From Candidatus Versatilivorator sp. (GTDB lineage: Bacteria; Acidobacteriota; Terriglobia; Versatilivoradales; Versatilivoraceae), in contig OZ242296.1 of NCBI GenBank assembly GCA_965207735.1, forward strand, positions 576,001 through 640,000: DNA of 64,000 bases, read 5' to 3'. The notes beneath the pieces are model-generated. The model made no database searches. It was not told the DNA's origin and worked only from the letters and a program-made list of their open reading frames with translations. Positions within the stretch are counted from its first letter, which is position 1; each line of letters starts with the position of its first letter. This document shows positions 2,925 through 39,982 of the stretch, one piece after another. The translations under genes were made by a program, and so were the position numbers.

Positions 2925-3761
2925 CTATTCCCGGACGACCTCGACCTCGGAATCCGGAATGGCGAGCTTCTTCAGCCTCAGGTCGCTGTCCAGCCAATAA
3001 TTGACTATCATCTCCCCCGTGTCGACCAGGAAGCGTCGCAGCCACAAGGGTTGATCCTCGAATTCGACTTCTTCCTTCCCCACTTCGGAAACGGTGACTC
3101 CTCCAGCCAAGAACTGTTGCGGAACGAACGCGGAGAACTCCTGAATGCCGCCACGGCAGAGGTCGTACCGTTTGGAGAGGATCAGGTAATGGTGAAAGAC
3201 ATTGTCGTCAAGAATGGTCACATCCTTTTTCAATTCGATTCTTTTCCGGTCCGTTTCTCCATCGGAAAAATAGGACACTCGGCTTCGATCCGGCAGGAAA
3301 TCCACCTTGGCCCTCATACGGTTGGGACCCGCATCCTGCACCACTTCGTAAGCCTCCGGTTCAAACAGGTCATTGAAACGAAGGGTGGAATCGATTCGGA
3401 AGGTCACCGGTTCGGCGGGCGGACGGTCGGGGCGGGGAAGCTCCTCATAATCTTCCTCATCCAGATATTCAGGCGGATCCGCGGGGTCTTCCCGGCTGAT
3501 GGTGAGTTGGGTGCGGCTACTGGCTTTTATGTGATGGTTGCTCTCCGAGATTTCGAATTCTTCGTGCCCGATTTCCTTTCCCGCGAAAAATATCCGGAAG
3601 CGACCGAGCTCGCGGCCGGAGTAAATGATGGGTGGAGGCTCCTCGTCCTCTTCCAGCTCCTTGCACTCCTGTTGCGGCAAAAGGGATGGCCCTGCCACCA
3701 GCAAGGGGCACAGCTGTAGCGACAACAGCAACCAAGCGGGGACGGCTGTCTTAATGCCCAT
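2925..3761 (-). CDS. Exported hypothetical protein (beta-rich)
   Basis: Signal-like N-terminus, operonic between aroK and the M28 gene. Confidence 0.65.
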   Translation of the reverse strand: MGIKTAVPAWLLLSLQLCPLLVAGPSLLPQQECKELEEDEEPPPIIYSGRELGRFRIFFAGKEIGHEEFEISESNHHIKASSRTQLTISREDPADPPEYLDEEDYEELPRPDRPPAEPVTFRIDSTLRFNDLFEPEAYEVVQDAGPNRMRAKVDFLPDRSRVSYFSDGETDRKRIELKKDVTILDDNVFHHYLILSKRYDLCRGGIQEFSAFVPQQFLAGGVTVSEVGKEEVEFEDQPLWLRRFLVDTGEMIVNYWLDSDLRLKKLAIPDSEVEVVRE

Positions 3762-4293
3762 GGTCAGGAGGGGTAGCAGGCCGGCTCAGTGAGAGCTGCA
3801 GACCGGTCTCTTCCAGGATGGTGCTCACTATTCTATCAGGGGGCAAGGAGGCGTCGACCTCAAAATCACTCAGCCGGTACAGGGGCAACCGGGATGCATA
3901 GAGCTCTTGTACTGAAGCCGGATCCTTCAGGAGCGGTCGGGTGCCGTCCGGAGGGCATCGCTCCAGCACAAGCTCCGGGGGCAGATTGAGAAATACCGAA
4001 AGCCCCAGCCGCTTGATGTGGAGACGGTTCCGGGGTTCGATGAATGCGCCGCCCCCCAGGGCTGCCACGCAGTGATTCCAGCGCTCCAGATTCCTCACGG
4101 CATCGCTTTCCATCCGGCGGAAGTAGGGTTCCCCATGCTCCGCGAAGATCCGGTGGATGGGACCGCCGAAGGAGGCCTCGATCACGGAGTCCAGGTCCAG
4201 GAAAGGCCATCCGAGGCGCTGGGCCAGCAACGGTCCGACAGTTGATTTCCCGGAGCCCATGAATCCGACCAGAAAGACGCGATCTCTTTCCAT
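3751..4293 (-). CDS. aroK: Shikimate kinase
   Basis: GFMGSGKS P-loop, DLD, GEPYFR, LGGG, RPLL. Confidence 0.95.
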   Translation of the reverse strand: MERDRVFLVGFMGSGKSTVGPLLAQRLGWPFLDLDSVIEASFGGPIHRIFAEHGEPYFRRMESDAVRNLERWNHCVAALGGGAFIEPRNRLHIKRLGLSVFLNLPPELVLERCPPDGTRPLLKDPASVQELYASRLPLYRLSDFEVDASLPPDRIVSTILEETGLQLSLSRPATPPDHGH

Positions 4294-32024: not shown

Positions 32025-33293
32025 TCAATCGGCGATGCGCTGAATCCTTGCCCCCAGCAACTGCAGCTTCTTCTCGATGGCTTCGTAGCCGCGGTCCAGG
32101 TGGTACACCCGGTGAACCAGCGTCTCTCCGCTGGCGACCAGTCCCGCCAGGATCAGGGAGGCGCTGGCTCGCAGATCGGAGGCCAGTACCTTGGCCCCCG
32201 TCAGATCCCGGCGCCCCGAGATCACGGCTCGGTTGCCCTCGATCCTGACGTCGGCCCCCATCCGCACCAACTCGCTGGCATGCAGGAATCGACTCTCGAA
32301 TATGGTCTCGGTGACGATGGAAGAACCGTGAGCCTGGGTCATCAGCGCCATGTATTGGGCCTGCATGTCGGTAGCGAAGCCGGGGTATTCCATGGTGGTG
32401 ACATCCCTTGCCTGGAGCCGGCGGGGGGCCGTTACCCGGCAGGCGTCGGGACCGCTGCGTTCGATGGCGATCCCGGTTTCCTCCAGCTTCTCGATCACGG
32501 CCGTCAGATGTTCGGGACGACAATTGAGCAGCTCGACGGCGCCGCCGGTGATGGCTCCGGCCACCATGAAGGTGCCCGCCTCGATGCGGTCCGGAATGAT
32601 GGTGTGGTCGGCTCCGCCCAACTCGGGCCTGCCCTGAATTCGAATGGTGCTGCTGCCGTCTCCCTCGATCCGAGCCCCCATCGAGCGCAGCAGATTGGCC
32701 AGATCGGTCACTTCAGGCTCGCGGGCGGCGTTATGCAGGACGGTCTCGCCTTTAGCCAGGCAAGCCGCCATCATGAGGTTTTCGGTTCCGGTGACGGTGA
32801 TCCGGTCGAAGACCACCTTTTCTCCGGTCAGGCGGGGCGCCGCGGCCTCGACGTATCCATGCTCGATAGTCAGGCTGGCGCCGAGTTTTTTCAGCCCCTT
32901 GATGTGGAGATCGATGGGGCGGGCCCCGATGGCGCAACCTCCCGGTAGGGACACCCGGGCCCGGCCGAAGCGGGCCAGCAGGGGCCCCAGGACCAGGACC
33001 GAAGAACGCATGGTCTTTACCCTCTCGTAGGGGGCGACGCAGGAGATGGGATTTGCGGCGACCAGTTCACAGCCATGGCCGGTCTGCAGGTCTTGCAGAC
33101 CGACCCGACAGCCCATCTCCTGCAGGAGTCGACCGGTGGTCCGGATGTCGCGGACGCTGGGCAGATTGCGCAGTCTGAGGGGTTCGTCGGTCAGCAGGGA
33201 AGCCGCCATGGCCGGCAGGGCCGCGTTCTTGGCGCCGCTGACGGCGACCCTGCCCCGCAGCACGGCGCCTCCCTGAATCAGGATCTTATCCAA
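32025..33293 (-). CDS. murA: UDP-N-acetylglucosamine 1-carboxyvinyltransferase
   Basis: [44 protein letters not shown]. Confidence 0.98.
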
Positions 33294-34455
33294 CGGTGTG
33301 GCTCACCTCCCCTTGCACAATGGTGGTATGCACCTGAAGGTTCCGGTCCAGAAGCACCATGTCGGCGTCGTGACCCGCGGCCAGGGTTCCCTTGCCGGCG
33401 GCCATCCCCAGCGATTGGGCCGGATTGCGGGTGAGCATGCCCAGCACGGTTTGCACCGGTAGACCGCTCCACCGGACGATGTTCCGCAGGGCCTGGTCCT
33501 GGGTCAGAATGCTGCCCGCCAACGTGCCGTCCGCCGTTCGACAGATACCATCCGAAAGCGTGATTTCGGCATCGGCCAGCCGGTACCGTCCCTCGGGCAT
33601 GCCGGTGGCGCTGACGGCGTCGCTGATCAGAAGCATCCTGCCGGCTCCCCTGCACCGGAGACAAAGGTCGACCGCGGCAGGCGAGACGTGCACCCCGTCG
33701 GCAATGAGCTCGGCCCAGATCCGCGGGGTTGTCAGGACGGCGCCGAGAATTCCCGGGTCGCGATGGCCAAAGCCCCTCATGGCGTTGAACAGGTGGGTGG
33801 CATTGCCGGCGCCTATATCAATGGCTGCCATGGTTTCTTCCAGGGTGGCGTTGGAGTGGCCCAGAGAGACGACGACCCCTCTGGAACGGGCGAAGCGGAT
33901 CAGGTCCAGGCCACCCTCGACTTCCGGCGCCAGCGTGATCAGCTTGATCCGATTGCCGGAGCGGGCCAGCAACTGCTCGAGGATGAGTGTGGATGGGCGG
34001 CGGATGTGCTCGGCGGAATGAGCCCCCCGCTTTTCGGGATTGATGAAGGGACCTTCCAGGTGGAGCCCCAGCATGCGGGCGCCCGGCAGAGGTCGATCCA
34101 CCTGGCGTCCCAGGGCTTCTACGGCCTGCAGGGTCGCAATGGGAGAAGCCGTCACGGTCGTGGCCAGAAAGGAGGTGGTGCCGTGAGCGGCCAGAAAGCG
34201 AGAAATCGCCTCGAGAGCCTCGGGCGTGCCCTCCATCACATCTCGTCCTATCGCGCCGTGGATGTGGACATCGATGAACCCCGGAGCCAGCAGTTGTCGG
34301 GAGTGGTCCACCACCTCGAATTCGTCCCTGGAGAACCGCACCGCCGCCCGGCTCCCGACTTCCAGGATCTTGGGGCCTTCGACCAGAACCACCCCGTCCA
34401 GAATGACCCGATCGGGAGTCATGACCCTGCCGGCGATCACTGCCAGTCGCTTCAT
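33286..34455 (-). CDS. nagA: N-acetylglucosamine-6-phosphate deacetylase
   Basis: PGFIDVHIHG, HLEGPF, TLAPE, THLFNAM, DGVH, LAGS. Confidence 0.96.
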   Translation of the reverse strand: MKRLAVIAGRVMTPDRVILDGVVLVEGPKILEVGSRAAVRFSRDEFEVVDHSRQLLAPGFIDVHIHGAIGRDVMEGTPEALEAISRFLAAHGTTSFLATTVTASPIATLQAVEALGRQVDRPLPGARMLGLHLEGPFINPEKRGAHSAEHIRRPSTLILEQLLARSGNRIKLITLAPEVEGGLDLIRFARSRGVVVSLGHSNATLEETMAAIDIGAGNATHLFNAMRGFGHRDPGILGAVLTTPRIWAELIADGVHVSPAAVDLCLRCRGAGRMLLISDAVSATGMPEGRYRLADAEITLSDGICRTADGTLAGSILTQDQALRNIVRWSGLPVQTVLGMLTRNPAQSLGMAAGKGTLAAGHDADMVLLDRNLQVHTTIVQGEVSHTVG

Positions 34456-37286
34456 GTCCCCTCATTCCCTGCGATATCCGTTTGCATTATCTCCCATGAG
34501 TCCACCGCTTCGGCCACGGTGTCGGCGAGTTGACGGCGGGCCGACTGGATGGCGCTGTTGTTCCGGGAGGGATGGACCCGGTTGGTCAGGAAGACGATGA
34601 AGAGCCGGCGGGTGGGGTCGATCCACAACGAGGTGCCGGTAAACCCCGTATGGCCATAGGCCTGGGGCGACAGCCTGCTGCCGGCCGAGCTGCTGGGCGC
34701 AGGGGTGTCCCAGCCAAGGGCGCGACTACTCCCAGATGGCTGGGCCTGACGTTGGGTGAAGGTTTCCAGAGTGCTCGGCTTCACGATGCGGCGATGGTTG
34801 TAGACGCCGCCGTTGAGGAGAGCCTGGCAAAAGACTGCCAGGTCCGCCGCGGTGCCGAACAGGCCGGCGTGACCCGCCACACCACCCATGGCATAGGCAT
34901 TTTCGTCATGGACCTCGCCCCTCAGCAACCGTTTCCTCCAGGGGTCGACTTCCGTGGGAGCAATCCGAGGACTCCAGGCGGACGGGGGTTGAAAGCAGGT
35001 CCGGTGCATTCCCAGGGGTTTGAAGATCTGTTGTCGAGCCAGGTTGTCGAGGCTGTCTCCACAAGCTCTTTCCAGGACGGCCGCCAGCAGAATGAAGCCC
35101 AGGTCGCTGTAGAGGCTGTGGCTGCCCGGCTGGTACTCCAGGGGAGTTTCCAGAATCCGTCGCAGGACGTTTTCCTTTCCGCTGGCATGGGCGTAGAGAG
35201 GGAGGTGGGCCGGGAGCCCCGAGGTGTGGGCCAACAGATGCTTGAGGGCGACTTGCCGTTTTCCCCCCTCCCGAAATTCTGGAAAGTAGCGTCCGAGCCG
35301 GTCTTCCAGGTCGATTGCCCCGCCTTCGCAAGCCTGCATGGCCAGGGTGGCGGTGCACACCACCTTTGTGAGTGAGGCCAGGTCATAAACGGAACGTGGG
35401 TTTGCCGGGGGACTGGTCGAAGTGTAGTCCAGCCTGCCGTATCCTCGGCAAACCAGCAGCTTTTCCCGGTAGCCAACCGCCAGGGAGGCTCCCGGGAAGG
35501 CTTGCAGGTCGATGAAGCGGCGGACAAGCTGCTGAAGCCTGGTTCGCAGGCCCCGGATGTCCTGTCGGGGCCGGTCCAATGCGTCCGGACGGGCCTTTTC
35601 CAGGACCATCGGAAAGGCTTCCCGGCGGAGGCCGGCGCCCCCCGCGGCTACGCCGGGAATCGACACCGGCAGCCGGCCGGTCAGGGGAATTTCTCCAAAG
35701 AGCGCCCTGGCTGCCGCCCGCTGGGAAGTGGAAACGTGGCTGTAGGCGCAGAGATAGGTGGGGAAGAAGGAAAGCTGTCGAATCAGATAAGGGTCACCCA
35801 GGGAAATCAAGAGCGCAGAGGGCTTGAGCCGGACCAGCCCCTTCAACCAATCCGCCAGGCGGGCAGGCAGTCCCAGCCGGCCGGTCCCGGTCACCAGCGG
35901 AACATACAGAGCCACCACGCAGAGATCCGCTTTGCCGGCCCCGTCCTTGACCTGGTTCAGCAGGGCGGGAGTCGCTTCCGGGGAGAGACGATCCACTTCC
36001 AGGAGATCGAGTCGCGTCCTGAGGTGATCTTCCAGATCGTCGGCAGCACTAGGCGATGGCTTGGCGGAAACGATGATCAGATGTGCCGAGCGGATTCGAC
36101 GGACGTCCAGCGGCACCTGAGAGGGATCGTCTTTCACCAGGGTGACGGAAGCGTCGGCCAGCTGTTGGGCTTGACGGTGAAGTGAGGGAGCGTTCATTCG
36201 CCGAGCCAACTGCCCGAAGTCCACCGGCTTTCTTCGGTTCAGTCCCAGCCAGGCCTTGGCCTGCAGGATACGCTCGACCGATCGGTCCACACGGGCCTGG
36301 GACAGGCGGCCGGTCTTTACCGCCTCGAGCAGCGCGCTGAAGACGACCCGGGCATCGGGTGGATCCAACAGCACGTCAACACCGGCCTCCAGGGCCTGAA
36401 CAGCCGCTTCGCCGCTCCAGTACCCTCGAGTCAGCCCCTGCATCTTCATGGAGTCGGATACGATCAGACCCTGAAACCCCAGCTCGTTCCTCAAGACCCG
36501 TTCCAGTATCGCCGCCGAGAGCGAGGCCGGGCGACGGCGGTCTTTCTCCAGGGCCGGGACGGCGACGTGAGCCGTCATGACCGCCATGACGCCGGCGCCG
36601 ATCGCCTCCCGAAACGGAACCCATTCGATCCGCTCCAGGCGTGGACGCTGCAGGGGAATCACCGGCAGGGACAGGTGCGAATCCACCTCGGTGTCGCCGT
36701 GACCCGGAAAATGCTTGGCGGTCGCCAGCACCCGGGCCTGCTGGGCTCCGGCCACGAATGCCGCGCCCAAACGGCCCACCGTTTCAGGGTCCTCTCCGTA
36801 GGAGCGGATGTTGATGACCGGATTGGCCGGGTTGTTGTTGACATCCACCACTGGGGCAAAAATCCAGTTGACTCCCAGGGCGCGGGCTTCCTGGGCGGTG
36901 ATGCGCCCCTGCCGGTAAGCCCACCGCTCCGAGCGGGTGGCCCCCACGGCCATGTTCCAGGGCAGGGGAACGGTATGGCGAATACGGAAGGCGGCCCCCC
37001 GCTCGAAGTCGGATCCGATCAGCAGGGGAATCGGTGCCTGGGACTGCAGTCGGTCGATGAGGACGGCCGATTCGTAGATGTCTCCCTCGAAGAGTATGAA
37101 ACCGCCCATGCCCAGTTCTTGCGCCTGATGCCGCAACCGCTCGAATTCGTGGCTGGCTTCATTGAGGTGAATTCCACGGATGGCCGGCATGATGAGCTGG
37201 CCGAGCTTAGCCTCCAAAGGCAGTCGGTTTAAAGTGGATATAACCCAATTTTTACCAATGGTTTGGAATTGGAATAGTGAAGGCAT
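34452..37286 (-). CDS. GH3 beta-N-acetylglucosaminidase fused to a beta-lactamase-like serine hydrolase
   Basis: KHFPGHGDTEVDSH (NagZ motif); C-terminal ASLTK (SxxK), YSD, GHTGFTG. Confidence 0.9.
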   Translation of the reverse strand: MPSLFQFQTIGKNWVISTLNRLPLEAKLGQLIMPAIRGIHLNEASHEFERLRHQAQELGMGGFILFEGDIYESAVLIDRLQSQAPIPLLIGSDFERGAAFRIRHTVPLPWNMAVGATRSERWAYRQGRITAQEARALGVNWIFAPVVDVNNNPANPVINIRSYGEDPETVGRLGAAFVAGAQQARVLATAKHFPGHGDTEVDSHLSLPVIPLQRPRLERIEWVPFREAIGAGVMAVMTAHVAVPALEKDRRRPASLSAAILERVLRNELGFQGLIVSDSMKMQGLTRGYWSGEAAVQALEAGVDVLLDPPDARVVFSALLEAVKTGRLSQARVDRSVERILQAKAWLGLNRRKPVDFGQLARRMNAPSLHRQAQQLADASVTLVKDDPSQVPLDVRRIRSAHLIIVSAKPSPSAADDLEDHLRTRLDLLEVDRLSPEATPALLNQVKDGAGKADLCVVALYVPLVTGTGRLGLPARLADWLKGLVRLKPSALLISLGDPYLIRQLSFFPTYLCAYSHVSTSQRAAARALFGEIPLTGRLPVSIPGVAAGGAGLRREAFPMVLEKARPDALDRPRQDIRGLRTRLQQLVRRFIDLQAFPGASLAVGYREKLLVCRGYGRLDYTSTSPPANPRSVYDLASLTKVVCTATLAMQACEGGAIDLEDRLGRYFPEFREGGKRQVALKHLLAHTSGLPAHLPLYAHASGKENVLRRILETPLEYQPGSHSLYSDLGFILLAAVLERACGDSLDNLARQQIFKPLGMHRTCFQPPSAWSPRIAPTEVDPWRKRLLRGEVHDENAYAMGGVAGHAGLFGTAADLAVFCQALLNGGVYNHRRIVKPSTLETFTQRQAQPSGSSRALGWDTPAPSSSAGSRLSPQAYGHTGFTGTSLWIDPTRRLFIVFLTNRVHPSRNNSAIQSARRQLADTVAEAVDSWEIMQTDIAGNEGT

Positions 37287-37567
37287 GGACGAAGTCCTTG
37301 CAACTGCTTGGGACGAGGGAGAGTACGCCGCGCAGGCAATACCCGGTCGGAAGCGGCTCAGCAGCCGGACACGCTATTGGGTTCATCCCATTGTTTGGCC
37401 GGCTCAGGGTTCTTGCCTTCGCCGTGCCTGGAGAGAGAGCCGAGTCGGTGGAATCCACTACCTGTCGGAACGTTGCGTAATATGTTTGTTTTCAACGAGG
37501 TGACGTTCAGGCGCAGGATCTGTCGCTCAAAGAGCGGAATTATCTTGTCAATGCGGTAAAAAACCTC

Positions 37568-37595
37568 TTGACATGCGGTATATATATGTTAGTCT
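37568..37595 (+). promoter_or_regulatory. Sigma70-type promoter
   Basis: TTGACA (37568-73), 16-nt spacer, extended -10 TGtTAGTCT (37587-95) in a locally AT-rich patch. Confidence 0.65.
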
Positions 37596-37601
37596 TTCTT
37601 T

Positions 37602-38107
37602 CAAACAGCCCCTGGACGGGAAGCCTCCTGAATGTGTTCACCCCGGAGAGGGTCCCAAACAGCAAGGCTGCCAGACAAAGGGTGGTCTCAAGGCTGCCCT
37701 TTGGCCACCAGAACGGTTGATCGCGATAGATTGCGGCACCGGGCCGGTGGCGAGAATTCTAGTGCAAAGGAGGCATTTGGGCAATCCTCACGGTCGTAAT
37801 CCTCACGGTCGTAATCGCCCCAATGCCGGCATGGATGATTCGGGAATTGCGAGGCCGGGAGAGGTGGAAGGCCTGTCAGCCTGCTGGTTCAGGCAATCCT
37901 CTCCAGGCACTCAAAGGTGTGGACGGGCAGGCGTGGAGAGGGAGACACGCTTGCTTTTCCGCTATCCCCCTCTCAGCGCGCGGGGAGGGGGTGCTTTGAG
38001 TGGAGTCCAAGAGTGAATCGCATTTCCGACCGGGTCGCTGGTTCCTGATCAAGACCGGGATACCAGGAGGCTCGGAGTGTTGGAACATCCCGTTCAGCCT
38101 GAAGGCT
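37602..38107 (+). ncRNA. Candidate large structured ncRNA of unknown class
   Basis: 5' and 3' ends pair (37612-21/38088-97; 37622-30/38064-72); at least 8 nested internal helices; G-U pairs favour the + strand; upstream promoter. Confidence 0.6.
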
Positions 38108-39500
38108 AGCTCTTGTTCCCCCCCCAGGGACCGGTGATGGCCAGGGTGATGCCCGGATTCTGGATGTTGGCAAAGAGGGTGGTTCCGTCGGGGGAAAAGG
38201 TCGAACCGGCAAACTCGGAGTTGTTGAAGACGTTGCGGCCGAGCTTGTAGAGGTCGCCCCGAGGAGTGACGCCGACCAGGAATTGCTCGTTCGGTCCATC
38301 CTCACAAAGGATCAGGTCTCCCCAGGGCGCCACCGTCAGGTTGTCGGCGTTCTCGACCAGGTTGCCGTCGTTGGGCTCGATGAAAAGTTCCAGTCTGCCC
38401 GGGCTGTTCTTCTCGCCGGGTTTTCCTTCCGCAGGACCGGGGGCGTAGCGCCACACCTGCCCCTTCTTGTTCAGACCGCCGTTGGTGCAGACAAAATAGA
38501 CCCATCCCTTGTCCCACCACATGCCTTCTCCCCTGGCGAAGCGGGCCGCACCCAGATCCTCGAATCCCCGATAGCGCAGGTCGTCGTCGGGGGACTCGAC
38601 CTCGTCGATTTCGACCCACTCCACCTCGAAAACATGTCCCGGCAGCACTTTGCGCGCATTCCAGTTTCGGGTGTCCAGACCGGGCTTGTCCTTCACTTTC
38701 AACACCTGCAGGCGTCCGCCCGCTGCCAGGTTTCCGGGCTGGTCGGGGATGAACCGATAGAGCAGTCCATCGCCCCGGTCCTCCGTTTCGTAGACGATTC
38801 CGGAATTGGGGTCGACGGCGACCGCTTCATGCACGAAGCGTCCCATGGCTTTCAGGGGAACGGCGAGAGTCAACCCGACTTCGCTGCTGGCCGGCACTTC
38901 GAAGTTGTAGCCGTGGTCCCTGGTGTAGAGTCCTTCCTCCTTTTGAATCGTCTCCTCGCAGGTAATCCAGCTTCCCCAGGGAGTCGGTCCTCCCGCACAG
39001 TTGCGAACCGTTCCGCCCAGGCTCAGGAAGTGCTTTTCCAGGCGCATCTCGCGGGTGTTGTAGACCACGGTGGTGGTTCCTCCCAGGCAGGCCCTCCTCC
39101 CACGGCCGGCGTCATACAATTTTTGCCGGTCTGCGTTCCTGAGCGACTGGTTGATGGGGCCAAAGGCTCCGATGGTCTGGTGATCGATGCCCAGCTCGTG
39201 ATTCCGGACCAGAATCGTGCTGCCTGCCGGACCCGGAAAGGCAGCCATCCCGTCATGCAGACCCGGAACTCTGTAGCCATCGTCCATCAACTCTCCCACT
39301 TTGGACAAGATCCGATAAGTGAAACCCGCGGGGAGTTCAATTACTCCCTCCGGATCCGATTGCAAGTCCCCATAGCCTGCCGGAGCATTCGGTTTGGAAG
39401 TGGGCCTTGAAAACCCGTTGCCGGTAAGGGAACGAAGCCCCAGAAAGCCCATGGTGCAGGCCCCGGACGCTTTCAGAAACGATCGTCGTGAGGAATTCAT
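38106..39500 (-). CDS. PhoX/DUF839 family Tat-exported alkaline phosphatase
   Basis: SRRSFLK Tat signal, HDGMAAF, NHE, NCAGGPTPWGSWITCEE, GRFVHEA, RGEG, NADN, SEFAG. Confidence 0.88.
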   Translation of the reverse strand: MNSSRRSFLKASGACTMGFLGLRSLTGNGFSRPTSKPNAPAGYGDLQSDPEGVIELPAGFTYRILSKVGELMDDGYRVPGLHDGMAAFPGPAGSTILVRNHELGIDHQTIGAFGPINQSLRNADRQKLYDAGRGRRACLGGTTTVVYNTREMRLEKHFLSLGGTVRNCAGGPTPWGSWITCEETIQKEEGLYTRDHGYNFEVPASSEVGLTLAVPLKAMGRFVHEAVAVDPNSGIVYETEDRGDGLLYRFIPDQPGNLAAGGRLQVLKVKDKPGLDTRNWNARKVLPGHVFEVEWVEIDEVESPDDDLRYRGFEDLGAARFARGEGMWWDKGWVYFVCTNGGLNKKGQVWRYAPGPAEGKPGEKNSPGRLELFIEPNDGNLVENADNLTVAPWGDLILCEDGPNEQFLVGVTPRGDLYKLGRNVFNNSEFAGSTFSPDGTTLFANIQNPGITLAITGPWGGNKS

Positions 39501-39641
39501 TTCGGTCTGCCTTTCTTGGGAGACGCCCGGCGCCGGTTCGTCAGAATCGCCGGTTCGATGCCCAGGTTCGTAGGGCGCTACCCTGATCTTCATTGATTCC
39601 GCGATGGGCTTGTATGTTAACAAGAACCGCTGTGTCACTCG

Positions 39642-39658
39642 CGTAAATTTATCGTAAA
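39642..39658 (-). promoter_or_regulatory. Possible Pho-box-like direct repeat
   Basis: TTTACG-N5-TTTACG (11-bp period) on the minus strand upstream of the PhoX-like gene. Confidence 0.3.
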
Positions 39659-39982
39659 GGGAATCCGGACGACCGACAAATCGAGAGAGGGATGCCATCT
39701 CAGGAATCCTTCCCGACCCGAATTGCGGCGCCCCGGGCGCCGACCAAAAAAGCCGTCCGGGGGCAGGCAACTGTGGTATTTTGGGGCGGCGTTCTTGCAG
39801 GCTTCGGAGCCGCCGGGCCACAGTCGGCGAACTCCGGCCGGGTGGCTGGCCTAAGGATAAAAAAGGTCTGATTTCAAGTCCTTATGAAGCGCATCTTTCG
39901 AGGCCTCCCGGACAGTATCGGGCAAGGCCATCCCCGAGAGCCATGAAGCGGGTCGGAACCCGCCGGCAGCGACATTCTTTCC

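Follow-up and report, generated by a model that had tools for sequence, protein, structure and literature searches.

A genus-restricted non-coding element with two facing promoter patterns beside GH3-nagA-murA in Candidatus Versatilivorator

The gap between a GH3 glycoside hydrolase gene and a PhoX alkaline phosphatase gene, both on the minus strand of the window (the whole 64,000-nt stretch analysed here), houses a real and conserved non-coding element of about 396 nt that belongs to no known family. It begins behind a plus-strand promoter pattern, P+, and contains a second promoter-like site, P-, that points the other way. The account we favour, with confidence somewhat short of even, is that the element specifies a cis-antisense RNA made from convergent promoters, of the type of RnaG, and predicted to damp GH3-nagA-murA.

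32025 to 33293, minus strand: murA, overlapping the nagA stop; the sole murA match in the genome
33286 to 34455, minus strand: nagA, overlapping the GH3 stop; TIGR00221 over cut-off
34452 to 37286, minus strand: GH3 glycoside hydrolase, NagZ-like, with a fused beta-lactamase-like domain; it opens the likely target operon
37602 to 37997, plus strand: predicted non-coding RNA, 396 nt; z -3.06; no conserved frame
37998 to 38097, plus strand: lineage-specific insertion, 100 nt
38106 to 39821, minus strand: PhoX alkaline phosphatase, convergent on the 3' domain of the element

The extent of the element is set by its relatives, which we aligned as 14 sequences, from 12 element-bearing genomes and two metagenome contigs, all of them kin and hence not independent. 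Homology spans the promoter and everything up to a GC hairpin ending at 37991 with a short T tail, and stops near 37996, so that the unit of about 500 nt proposed by the sequence-only reading contracts to a conserved one of about 396 nt; its length in relatives is 365-398 nt, and 288 nt in G013. Each of the helix arms listed by that reading is present where it was placed. The long-range helices 37612/38097, 37622/38072 and 37840/38029 have, by our alignments, their 3' arms in 4 of the 14 sequences only, and the 3' arms of the supposed closing helices lie inside the segment 37998-38097, which is confined to this genome (G000), G002 and two near-identical metagenome contigs; because that segment is lineage-specific, the closed 500-nt fold is not the conserved structure. 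A duplex between the 5' 50 nt and the downstream 110 nt is good in G000, G002 and locus L057, and also in G004, whose DNA there is PhoX. Part of the insertion (38019-38045) resembles the end of a 14-copy genomic repeat. This repeat, found for example at 1211706 and 2277151 of contig C1 of G000, starts after CTAG and is in one case closed by an inverted end after about 250 nt, in the manner of a MITE; in G008 and G009 related ends sit by the PhoX stop, and in contigs assembled from RNA runs they sit beside the element.

The earlier judgement that the element is non-coding is borne out. No frame is common to the relatives, the variable columns (83, 79 and 87 by codon position) lack codon periodicity, and the open reading frame at 37573-38016 meets stops and frame shifts in relatives and has no Pfam or PHROG match. 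Nor does any of 4227 Rfam families match at the element, either in the window or in eight relatives, in line with the lack of known-family signatures first noted from the letters, and the 6S, RNase P, SRP and tmRNA of this genome are each located elsewhere, as a distinct RNA would have it. The faint 6S likeness once seen in the closing stem dissolves: there is no RF00013 match, the genome's 6S RNA lies elsewhere (72 bits), and the 6S-like stem is not conserved. We found no paper on the element in the openly accessible literature; large motif surveys may carry it in supplementary tables.

A DNA search of 61 genomes gave matches in 12 of 13 same-genus relatives and in none of 47 others; since the match in G005 is a 31-nt repeat piece only, the true carriers number 11 of the 13, as a covariance model of the 3' 151 nt confirms. 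The element is single-copy in each genome; its plus-strand promoter pattern and the want of a known family are as the sequence-only reading had them. A metagenome scan for homologues yielded two close relatives, and viral contigs and phage and plasmid collections yielded none. Model R1 found nothing outside the genus among 151 class-level genomes and, among 151 phylum-level genomes, repeat hairpins only, in two of them; the covariance-model search gave four weak family-level matches of 20-28 bits, and the pattern matches outside the genus are multi-copy repeat hairpins. Loci L104-L112 (G092, G120) are multi-copy double-hairpin repeats resembling BoxC/PIT, in two genomes of one other Acidobacteriota genus. 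Within the genus, no element was found in G001 and G005, both listed as 100% complete. As each is sister to an element-bearing genome on the GH3 tree, the element was likely lost twice.

The neighbourhood has a history of its own. In other genera GH3 faces an M20 peptidase gene, directly or across a short insert, in at least eight loci among the 12 listed of 16, and not one of the 16 gave a profile match to the element; the element and PhoX together thus look like a genus-specific insertion. GH3, nagA and murA, whose ends overlap in G000, are adjacent in five of the six relatives fetched. The exception is G011, where nagA-murA is absent within 4 kb behind GH3 and an HTH repressor gene comes first behind P-. 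G001 and G005, in which the element was not found, both retain GH3-nagA-murA, so that neither promoter is indispensable. This and the case of G011 count against the antisense reading.

37551 to 37558 and 37573 to 37580, no strand: direct repeat of ATGCGGTA, its two copies 22 nt apart and flanking the -35 box; candidate operator
37568 to 37595, plus strand: P+, predicted promoter of sigma70 type, TTGACA, 16 nt, TG-n-TAGTCT (extended -10); transcript expected to start near 37602
37602 to 37749, no strand: overlap of the two predicted transcripts; hairpins loosely kept, sequence free
37756 to 37784, minus strand: P-, predicted sigma70-like promoter (TTGCCC-N17-TAGAAT) facing GH3-nagA-murA; transcript expected to start near 37749

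The plus-strand promoter described from the sequence, TTGACA-N16-(TG)TAGTCT, is in place (TTGACA at 37568, TG-T-TAGTCT at 37587-37595) and is kept in 12 of 12 genomes, with TTGAC and TG.TA...T invariant throughout; in 11 of the 12 it faces no gene. The ATGCGGTA pair is the sole such pair in the genome, and most relatives retain it; G009 has one altered copy, and it is missing from G011. Upstream of P+, at 37485-37496, lies a TTTGTTTTCAAC motif that is also kept in most relatives and has two further sites in the genome. Elsewhere on C1 of G000 an identical consensus-like promoter occurs 17 times, for example at 134412, and is probably part of an insertion sequence.

P-, the opposite promoter-like site, was missed by the sequence-only reading, and as a pattern it is strikingly steady. 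TTGCCC-N17-TA(G/A)AAT, with a spacer of exactly 17 nt, is present in all 14 sequences (12 genomes and two metagenome contigs, related by descent), the most distant relative among those in which it is picked up; ten of the 12 hexamer positions are invariant as against six of the 17 in the spacer, and the lone variable -10 position is position 3. A site of this type falls in one column in 8 of 11 aligned rows, where the maximum in 500 column shuffles was 6, and TTGCCC-N17-TA..AT is spacing-specific in the genome, with eight sites at 17 nt against 0-3 at six control spacers. Between GH3 and P+, eight of nine genomes checked have no further minus-strand site scoring at least 9/12 (the exception being G003). 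The scan is coarse: it misses P+ itself, and weaker promoters on the minus strand may have escaped it. RNA structure could contribute to the conservation of the P- -35 box, which is also one arm of a predicted helix.

The two predicted starts are 144-155 nt apart in 13 of the 14 sequences, and 53 nt apart in G013, from which 100 nt of the overlap are deleted; RNA-RNA pairing would be limited there. Within the overlap 12 of 147 positions are invariant, and the first 100 nt or so have a mean identity of 0.62, below the 0.69 of four-fold sites in GH3. Such freedom may arise because sense and antisense sequences change together. The predicted leader of P- is long, about 460 nt, and has a T run some 185 nt from its start, with no hairpin before it in the one fold made; the same run is the A tract upstream of P+.

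These are the features that bring RnaG to mind. In Shigella flexneri, RnaG is a 450-nt structured RNA whose strong promoter faces the weaker one of icsA, with an overlap of about 120 nt, and acts by interference and attenuation (PMC2879508). Facing promoters with overlapping 5' ends occur here as sequence patterns in 14 of 14 sequences, and the antisense transcript would be non-coding; size, convergent promoters, 5' overlap and a remainder of the RNA outside the overlap are all alike. On the other side, the target here would be a cell-wall operon, no attenuator was found in the opposite leader in the one fold made, and the 3' end is near-invariant. RnaG has been shown by experiment whereas the present RNA is a prediction, and a sequence relation between the two is not to be expected.

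From these patterns we infer that both promoters fire and that P- serves the operon. If so, P+, the stronger-looking of the two, would make an RNA of about 396 nt that damps the opposite transcript from P-, mainly through transcriptional interference: polymerase coming from P+ would cross P- and collide with, or dislodge, polymerase there, a route that is sequence-independent and so would survive the deletion in G013. Pairing in cis between the first 150 nt or so of the RNA and the complementary first 150 nt or so of the P- leader could add a second layer. A factor bound to the ATGCGGTA repeats might tune P+ and thereby, indirectly, the operon, much as repressors act at convergent phage promoters (PMC5001618). 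In lambda PR-PRE a repressor at one promoter controls the other through relief of interference, and G011 has a CI-like HTH gene behind P-; unlike lambda, the element has no phage genes around it and no match in phage collections, and most genomes have lost the repressor. The 3' hairpins would serve to terminate the RNA and shield it, and their near-invariance points to some further contact, whether with a protein, a partner RNA or a second copy of the RNA itself.

37785 to 37814, plus strand: 15-nt tandem duplication in a hairpin loop; lineage-specific
37858 to 37904, plus strand: helix GGAGAGG/CCTCTCC; two-sided change once, in G011; tip deleted in G003 and G007

How far the element is a folded RNA is a matter of degree. 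Against dinucleotide shuffles, 37600-38110 has a z of -3.09 on the plus strand (0 of 100 shuffles as good) and -2.57 on the minus strand (1 of 100), on a scale where RNase P RNA and 6S RNA of the same genome reach -3.4 and -5.0. Fourteen random 398-nt windows of the same genome range from +1.0 to -2.74 (median about -1.3), and because they reach so low the single-sequence signal is modest; single-sequence z-scores run from -0.9 to -4.1. The plus strand does fold better than its shuffles, as the sequence-only reading expected, but both strands do so. Its argument for the strand from G-U pairs loses its force, with 22 G-U against 14 A-C variant types (p = 0.12, not significant). RNAalifold with eight sequences gives -180.7 kcal/mol for the plus strand and -151.6 for the minus strand (z -6.1 and -4.6, 40 column shuffles). 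In a hand-drawn structure of 77 pairs, taken from G008, 91.7% of cells are paired; two-sided changes occur at three of the 77 pairs, which is not above shuffles (53 of 500) for ten related sequences with little power. The structure is plausible, with covariation not above shuffles in this small set. A pseudoknot between 37729-37737 and 37793-37801 was set aside: by eye it shows a two-sided change between G000 and G012/G013 and is broken in G003, G004 and G011.

Conservation rises steeply along the element, mean pairwise identity being 0.62, 0.74, 0.79 and 0.92 from 5' to 3'. The 6S and RNase P RNAs of five carrier genomes are 92-96% identical to those of G000, and between genomes with such values the whole element is 71-81% identical. 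With 62 of 80 positions invariant, as against a far less conserved 5' part, it is only the last 80 nt that behave, in sequence, like a housekeeping RNA.

37916 to 37995, plus strand: 3' domain; 62 of 80 positions invariant, mean identity 0.92, z -5.07
37919 to 37962, plus strand: hairpin A, with an all-purine 10-nt loop at 37936-37945
37966 to 37991, plus strand: hairpin B, with a palindromic loop at 37975-37982, then a short T tail

The antisense model leaves this invariant domain unexplained. One could instead suppose, though we find it doubtful, that the element is a free-standing structured RNA whose 3' domain uses the purine loop to bind a protein or RNA and the palindromic loop to dimerise, in the manner of OLE and GOLLD, P- being incidental. 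The domain is 85-98% identical to that of G000, comparable to 6S and RNase P, and was kept after both ancestral neighbours had decayed; Hfq is present, with three family matches over the Pfam cut-off (377294, 1483676 and 4756578 on C1 of G000). The loop of hairpin B reads GCGCGC in 12 sequences and GCTAGC in two (G008 and G012), and the single-change form is absent in all 14. In OLE and GOLLD, palindrome switches of this sort are the mark of symmetric kissing loops, and GOLLD likewise has a conserved 3' and a variable 5' part (PMC12286853; for RNA multimers in general see 10.64898/2026.07.01.735769). Yet only one type of loop change is seen here, in two genomes that share other segments, so it is perhaps a single event, and by chance three of the nine possible double changes would give a palindrome. 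In two other Acidobacteriota genomes, moreover, multi-copy repeats have hairpins only 1-2 nt off hairpin B, with GC-NN-GC loops in which NN is non-palindromic. What we take to be a G(CNNG)C tetraloop would suffice, and explains the loop of hairpin B equally well. Covariation, as noted, does not exceed shuffles, the 5' two thirds fall far below housekeeping RNAs in conservation, and the element is not found in two of 14 genus members.

The sequence-only reading had gone further, to a free-standing RNA on the scale of OLE, ROOL and GOLLD. There are likenesses in the length of several hundred nucleotides, the many hairpins, the palindrome-switching loop and the 3'/5' gradient of GOLLD (PMC12286853); the element differs in being shorter, in being limited to one genus, in its internal opposite promoter and in having no Rfam match. 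An overall identity of 71-81%, the two complete same-genus genomes in which it was not found and the want of excess covariation speak against such a class, and the conserved opposite promoter ties the element to the operon. On present evidence, then, it is not an OLE/GOLLD-like housekeeping RNA.

Several more specific roles were considered. For a conserved target in trans, no complement of at least 15 nt is found in the genome. The purine loop pairs well with the opposite leader in G000, G002 and G013 and no better than background in most others, and we rejected such pairing; we likewise rejected a CsrB/RsmZ-like sponge (12 GGA in 396 nt, about what composition gives, and no CsrA match in the genome). 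As for a dif site, a dif-like one, by the pattern that we presume for it, lies instead at C1:700809, at the GC-skew switch and 87 kb away, where the strongly asymmetric skew suggests rearrangement.

The flanks in G011 speak to where the unit came from. There, on locus L034, a CI-like HTH gene and a gene for a protein of about 290 aa flank the element (1696-2196 and 3185-4063). The protein belongs to an unnamed family with weak SurA_N similarity below the Pfam cut-offs, with 61 representatives at E of at most 0.001 and members in only 2 of 301 class genomes, and pieces of the HTH or SurA_N-like genes remain in G001, G005 and G009. To go by these remnants, the unit probably originated as control DNA shared by a repressor gene and its divergent target. 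Since then the two genes have been outlived by both promoters and by the 3' domain, which would suggest that the plus transcript is useful in itself.

That the element is nothing but the relic leader or attenuator of the lost SurA-like gene, its two-state switch now a mere terminator, seems to us unlikely. In the switch a single pyrimidine tract would be contested by the purine loop and the last purine tract, and 9 of the loop's 10 nt are indeed able to pair with hairpin B along its 5' arm; in G011 the HTH gene behind P- is intact and the SurA_N-like gene lies about 127 nt behind hairpin B, with remnants of one or both genes in the three genomes named. The switched fold costs about 20 kcal/mol, however (-24.0 against -43.7), the T tail is weak, and in 11 of the 12 carriers, whose 3' domains stay 94-98% identical, no such gene is found downstream. 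In position the purine loop resembles a ribosome-binding site (37935-37977): 6 nt further on comes an invariant TTG that opens M-(L/P)-(F/V/I)-R-(Y/D)-P-P-L-S, beyond which length is not conserved. The TTG frame stops after nine codons in G008 and G012 and varies in length, which counts against this reading. The downstream open reading frame of G011 was dismissed as a coding cause of the 3' domain, since relatives align only from about residue 66 on; its single-sequence structure model, with a pLDDT of 39.7, is unusable.

Quite unlikely, in our estimate, is a reading with no functional RNA at all, in which GH3 regulatory DNA is joined to a domesticated BoxC/PIT-like hairpin that stops convergent transcription from PhoX or inserted genes. 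The closeness of hairpin B to the repeats of two other Acidobacteriota, those repeats being also what matches outside the genus, lends it some weight, as do the PhoX stop, 12-25 nt from the hairpin in seven genomes, and the modest single-sequence z. It sits poorly with an invariant P+ that faces no gene in 11 of 12 genomes, with a 3' domain that folds 12-20 kcal/mol better on the plus strand in 10 of 10 sequences, and with an invariant 10-nt loop, which a terminator does not need. The likeness to BoxC/PIT/TM repeats consists of the CCCCCTCTC...GAGGGGG hairpin, the GGAGAGGGAG tract and an insertion-prone neighbourhood (PMC4666352), and PIT elements showed no terminator activity according to the same paper. 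Unlike those repeats, the element is single copy, lacks the third purine block and lies within a promoter-driven unit; as a BoxC/PIT triplex repeat it was rejected, the three-block consensus going unmatched even with four mismatches allowed.

In G003 (locus L008) and G009 (L117/L052), genomes far apart on the GH3 tree, a reverse transcriptase-nitrilase gene lies convergent, a few hundred nucleotides behind the hairpin, and both have a second GGGTG(C/T)TT(C/G)AA copy about 85 nt downstream. In G009 the gene belongs to a 13.5-kb island that also contains an IS630-like transposase and open reading frames of 1339 and 1049 aa, in which no clear att-like duplication was found. The 3' end of the element looks like a repeated landing site. 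One might join all of this into a new class of two-part bacterial RNA, with a free 5' part that controls the operon in cis and an invariant 80-nt 3' domain, derived from a BoxC-like hairpin, that dimerises and has its effect in trans, while defence islands use the 3' end as a landing site; the dimerising loop would resemble what we take to be the HIV dimerisation loop (HIV-DIS). We consider this very unlikely as a whole.

Sixteen RNA runs from five studies hold a small share of the element's words. Contigs from six of the 16 were examined, X1, X6, X10 and X14 against the window and X10, X12, X14 and X5 against the G009 locus L062, and such contigs give neither strand nor ends nor the rank of parts. 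Those of X10, X12 and X14 cover a G009-like element, flanks included, and one X14 contig spans it. The summed contig depth of X10 and X12, from one study, is 91-150 over the 3' two thirds and falls to about 10-40 in most bins of the flanks, GH3 on one side included, and for the window the contig depth of the 3' domain is not above that of PhoX; we count these depths neither for nor against transcription.

Its range of one genus limits the general importance of the element. Within that genus, the 3' end is an 80-nt RNA domain conserved like RNase P and of no known family. If the cis-antisense reading is right, the unit as a whole would be a two-promoter cassette with sigma70-type signals, an antisense or interference switch placed before peptidoglycan recycling genes and the only murA match in the genome. 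The lineage is little studied, its sequences turning up in sponge and marine samples, and control of the cell wall at this point may bear on life inside a host.
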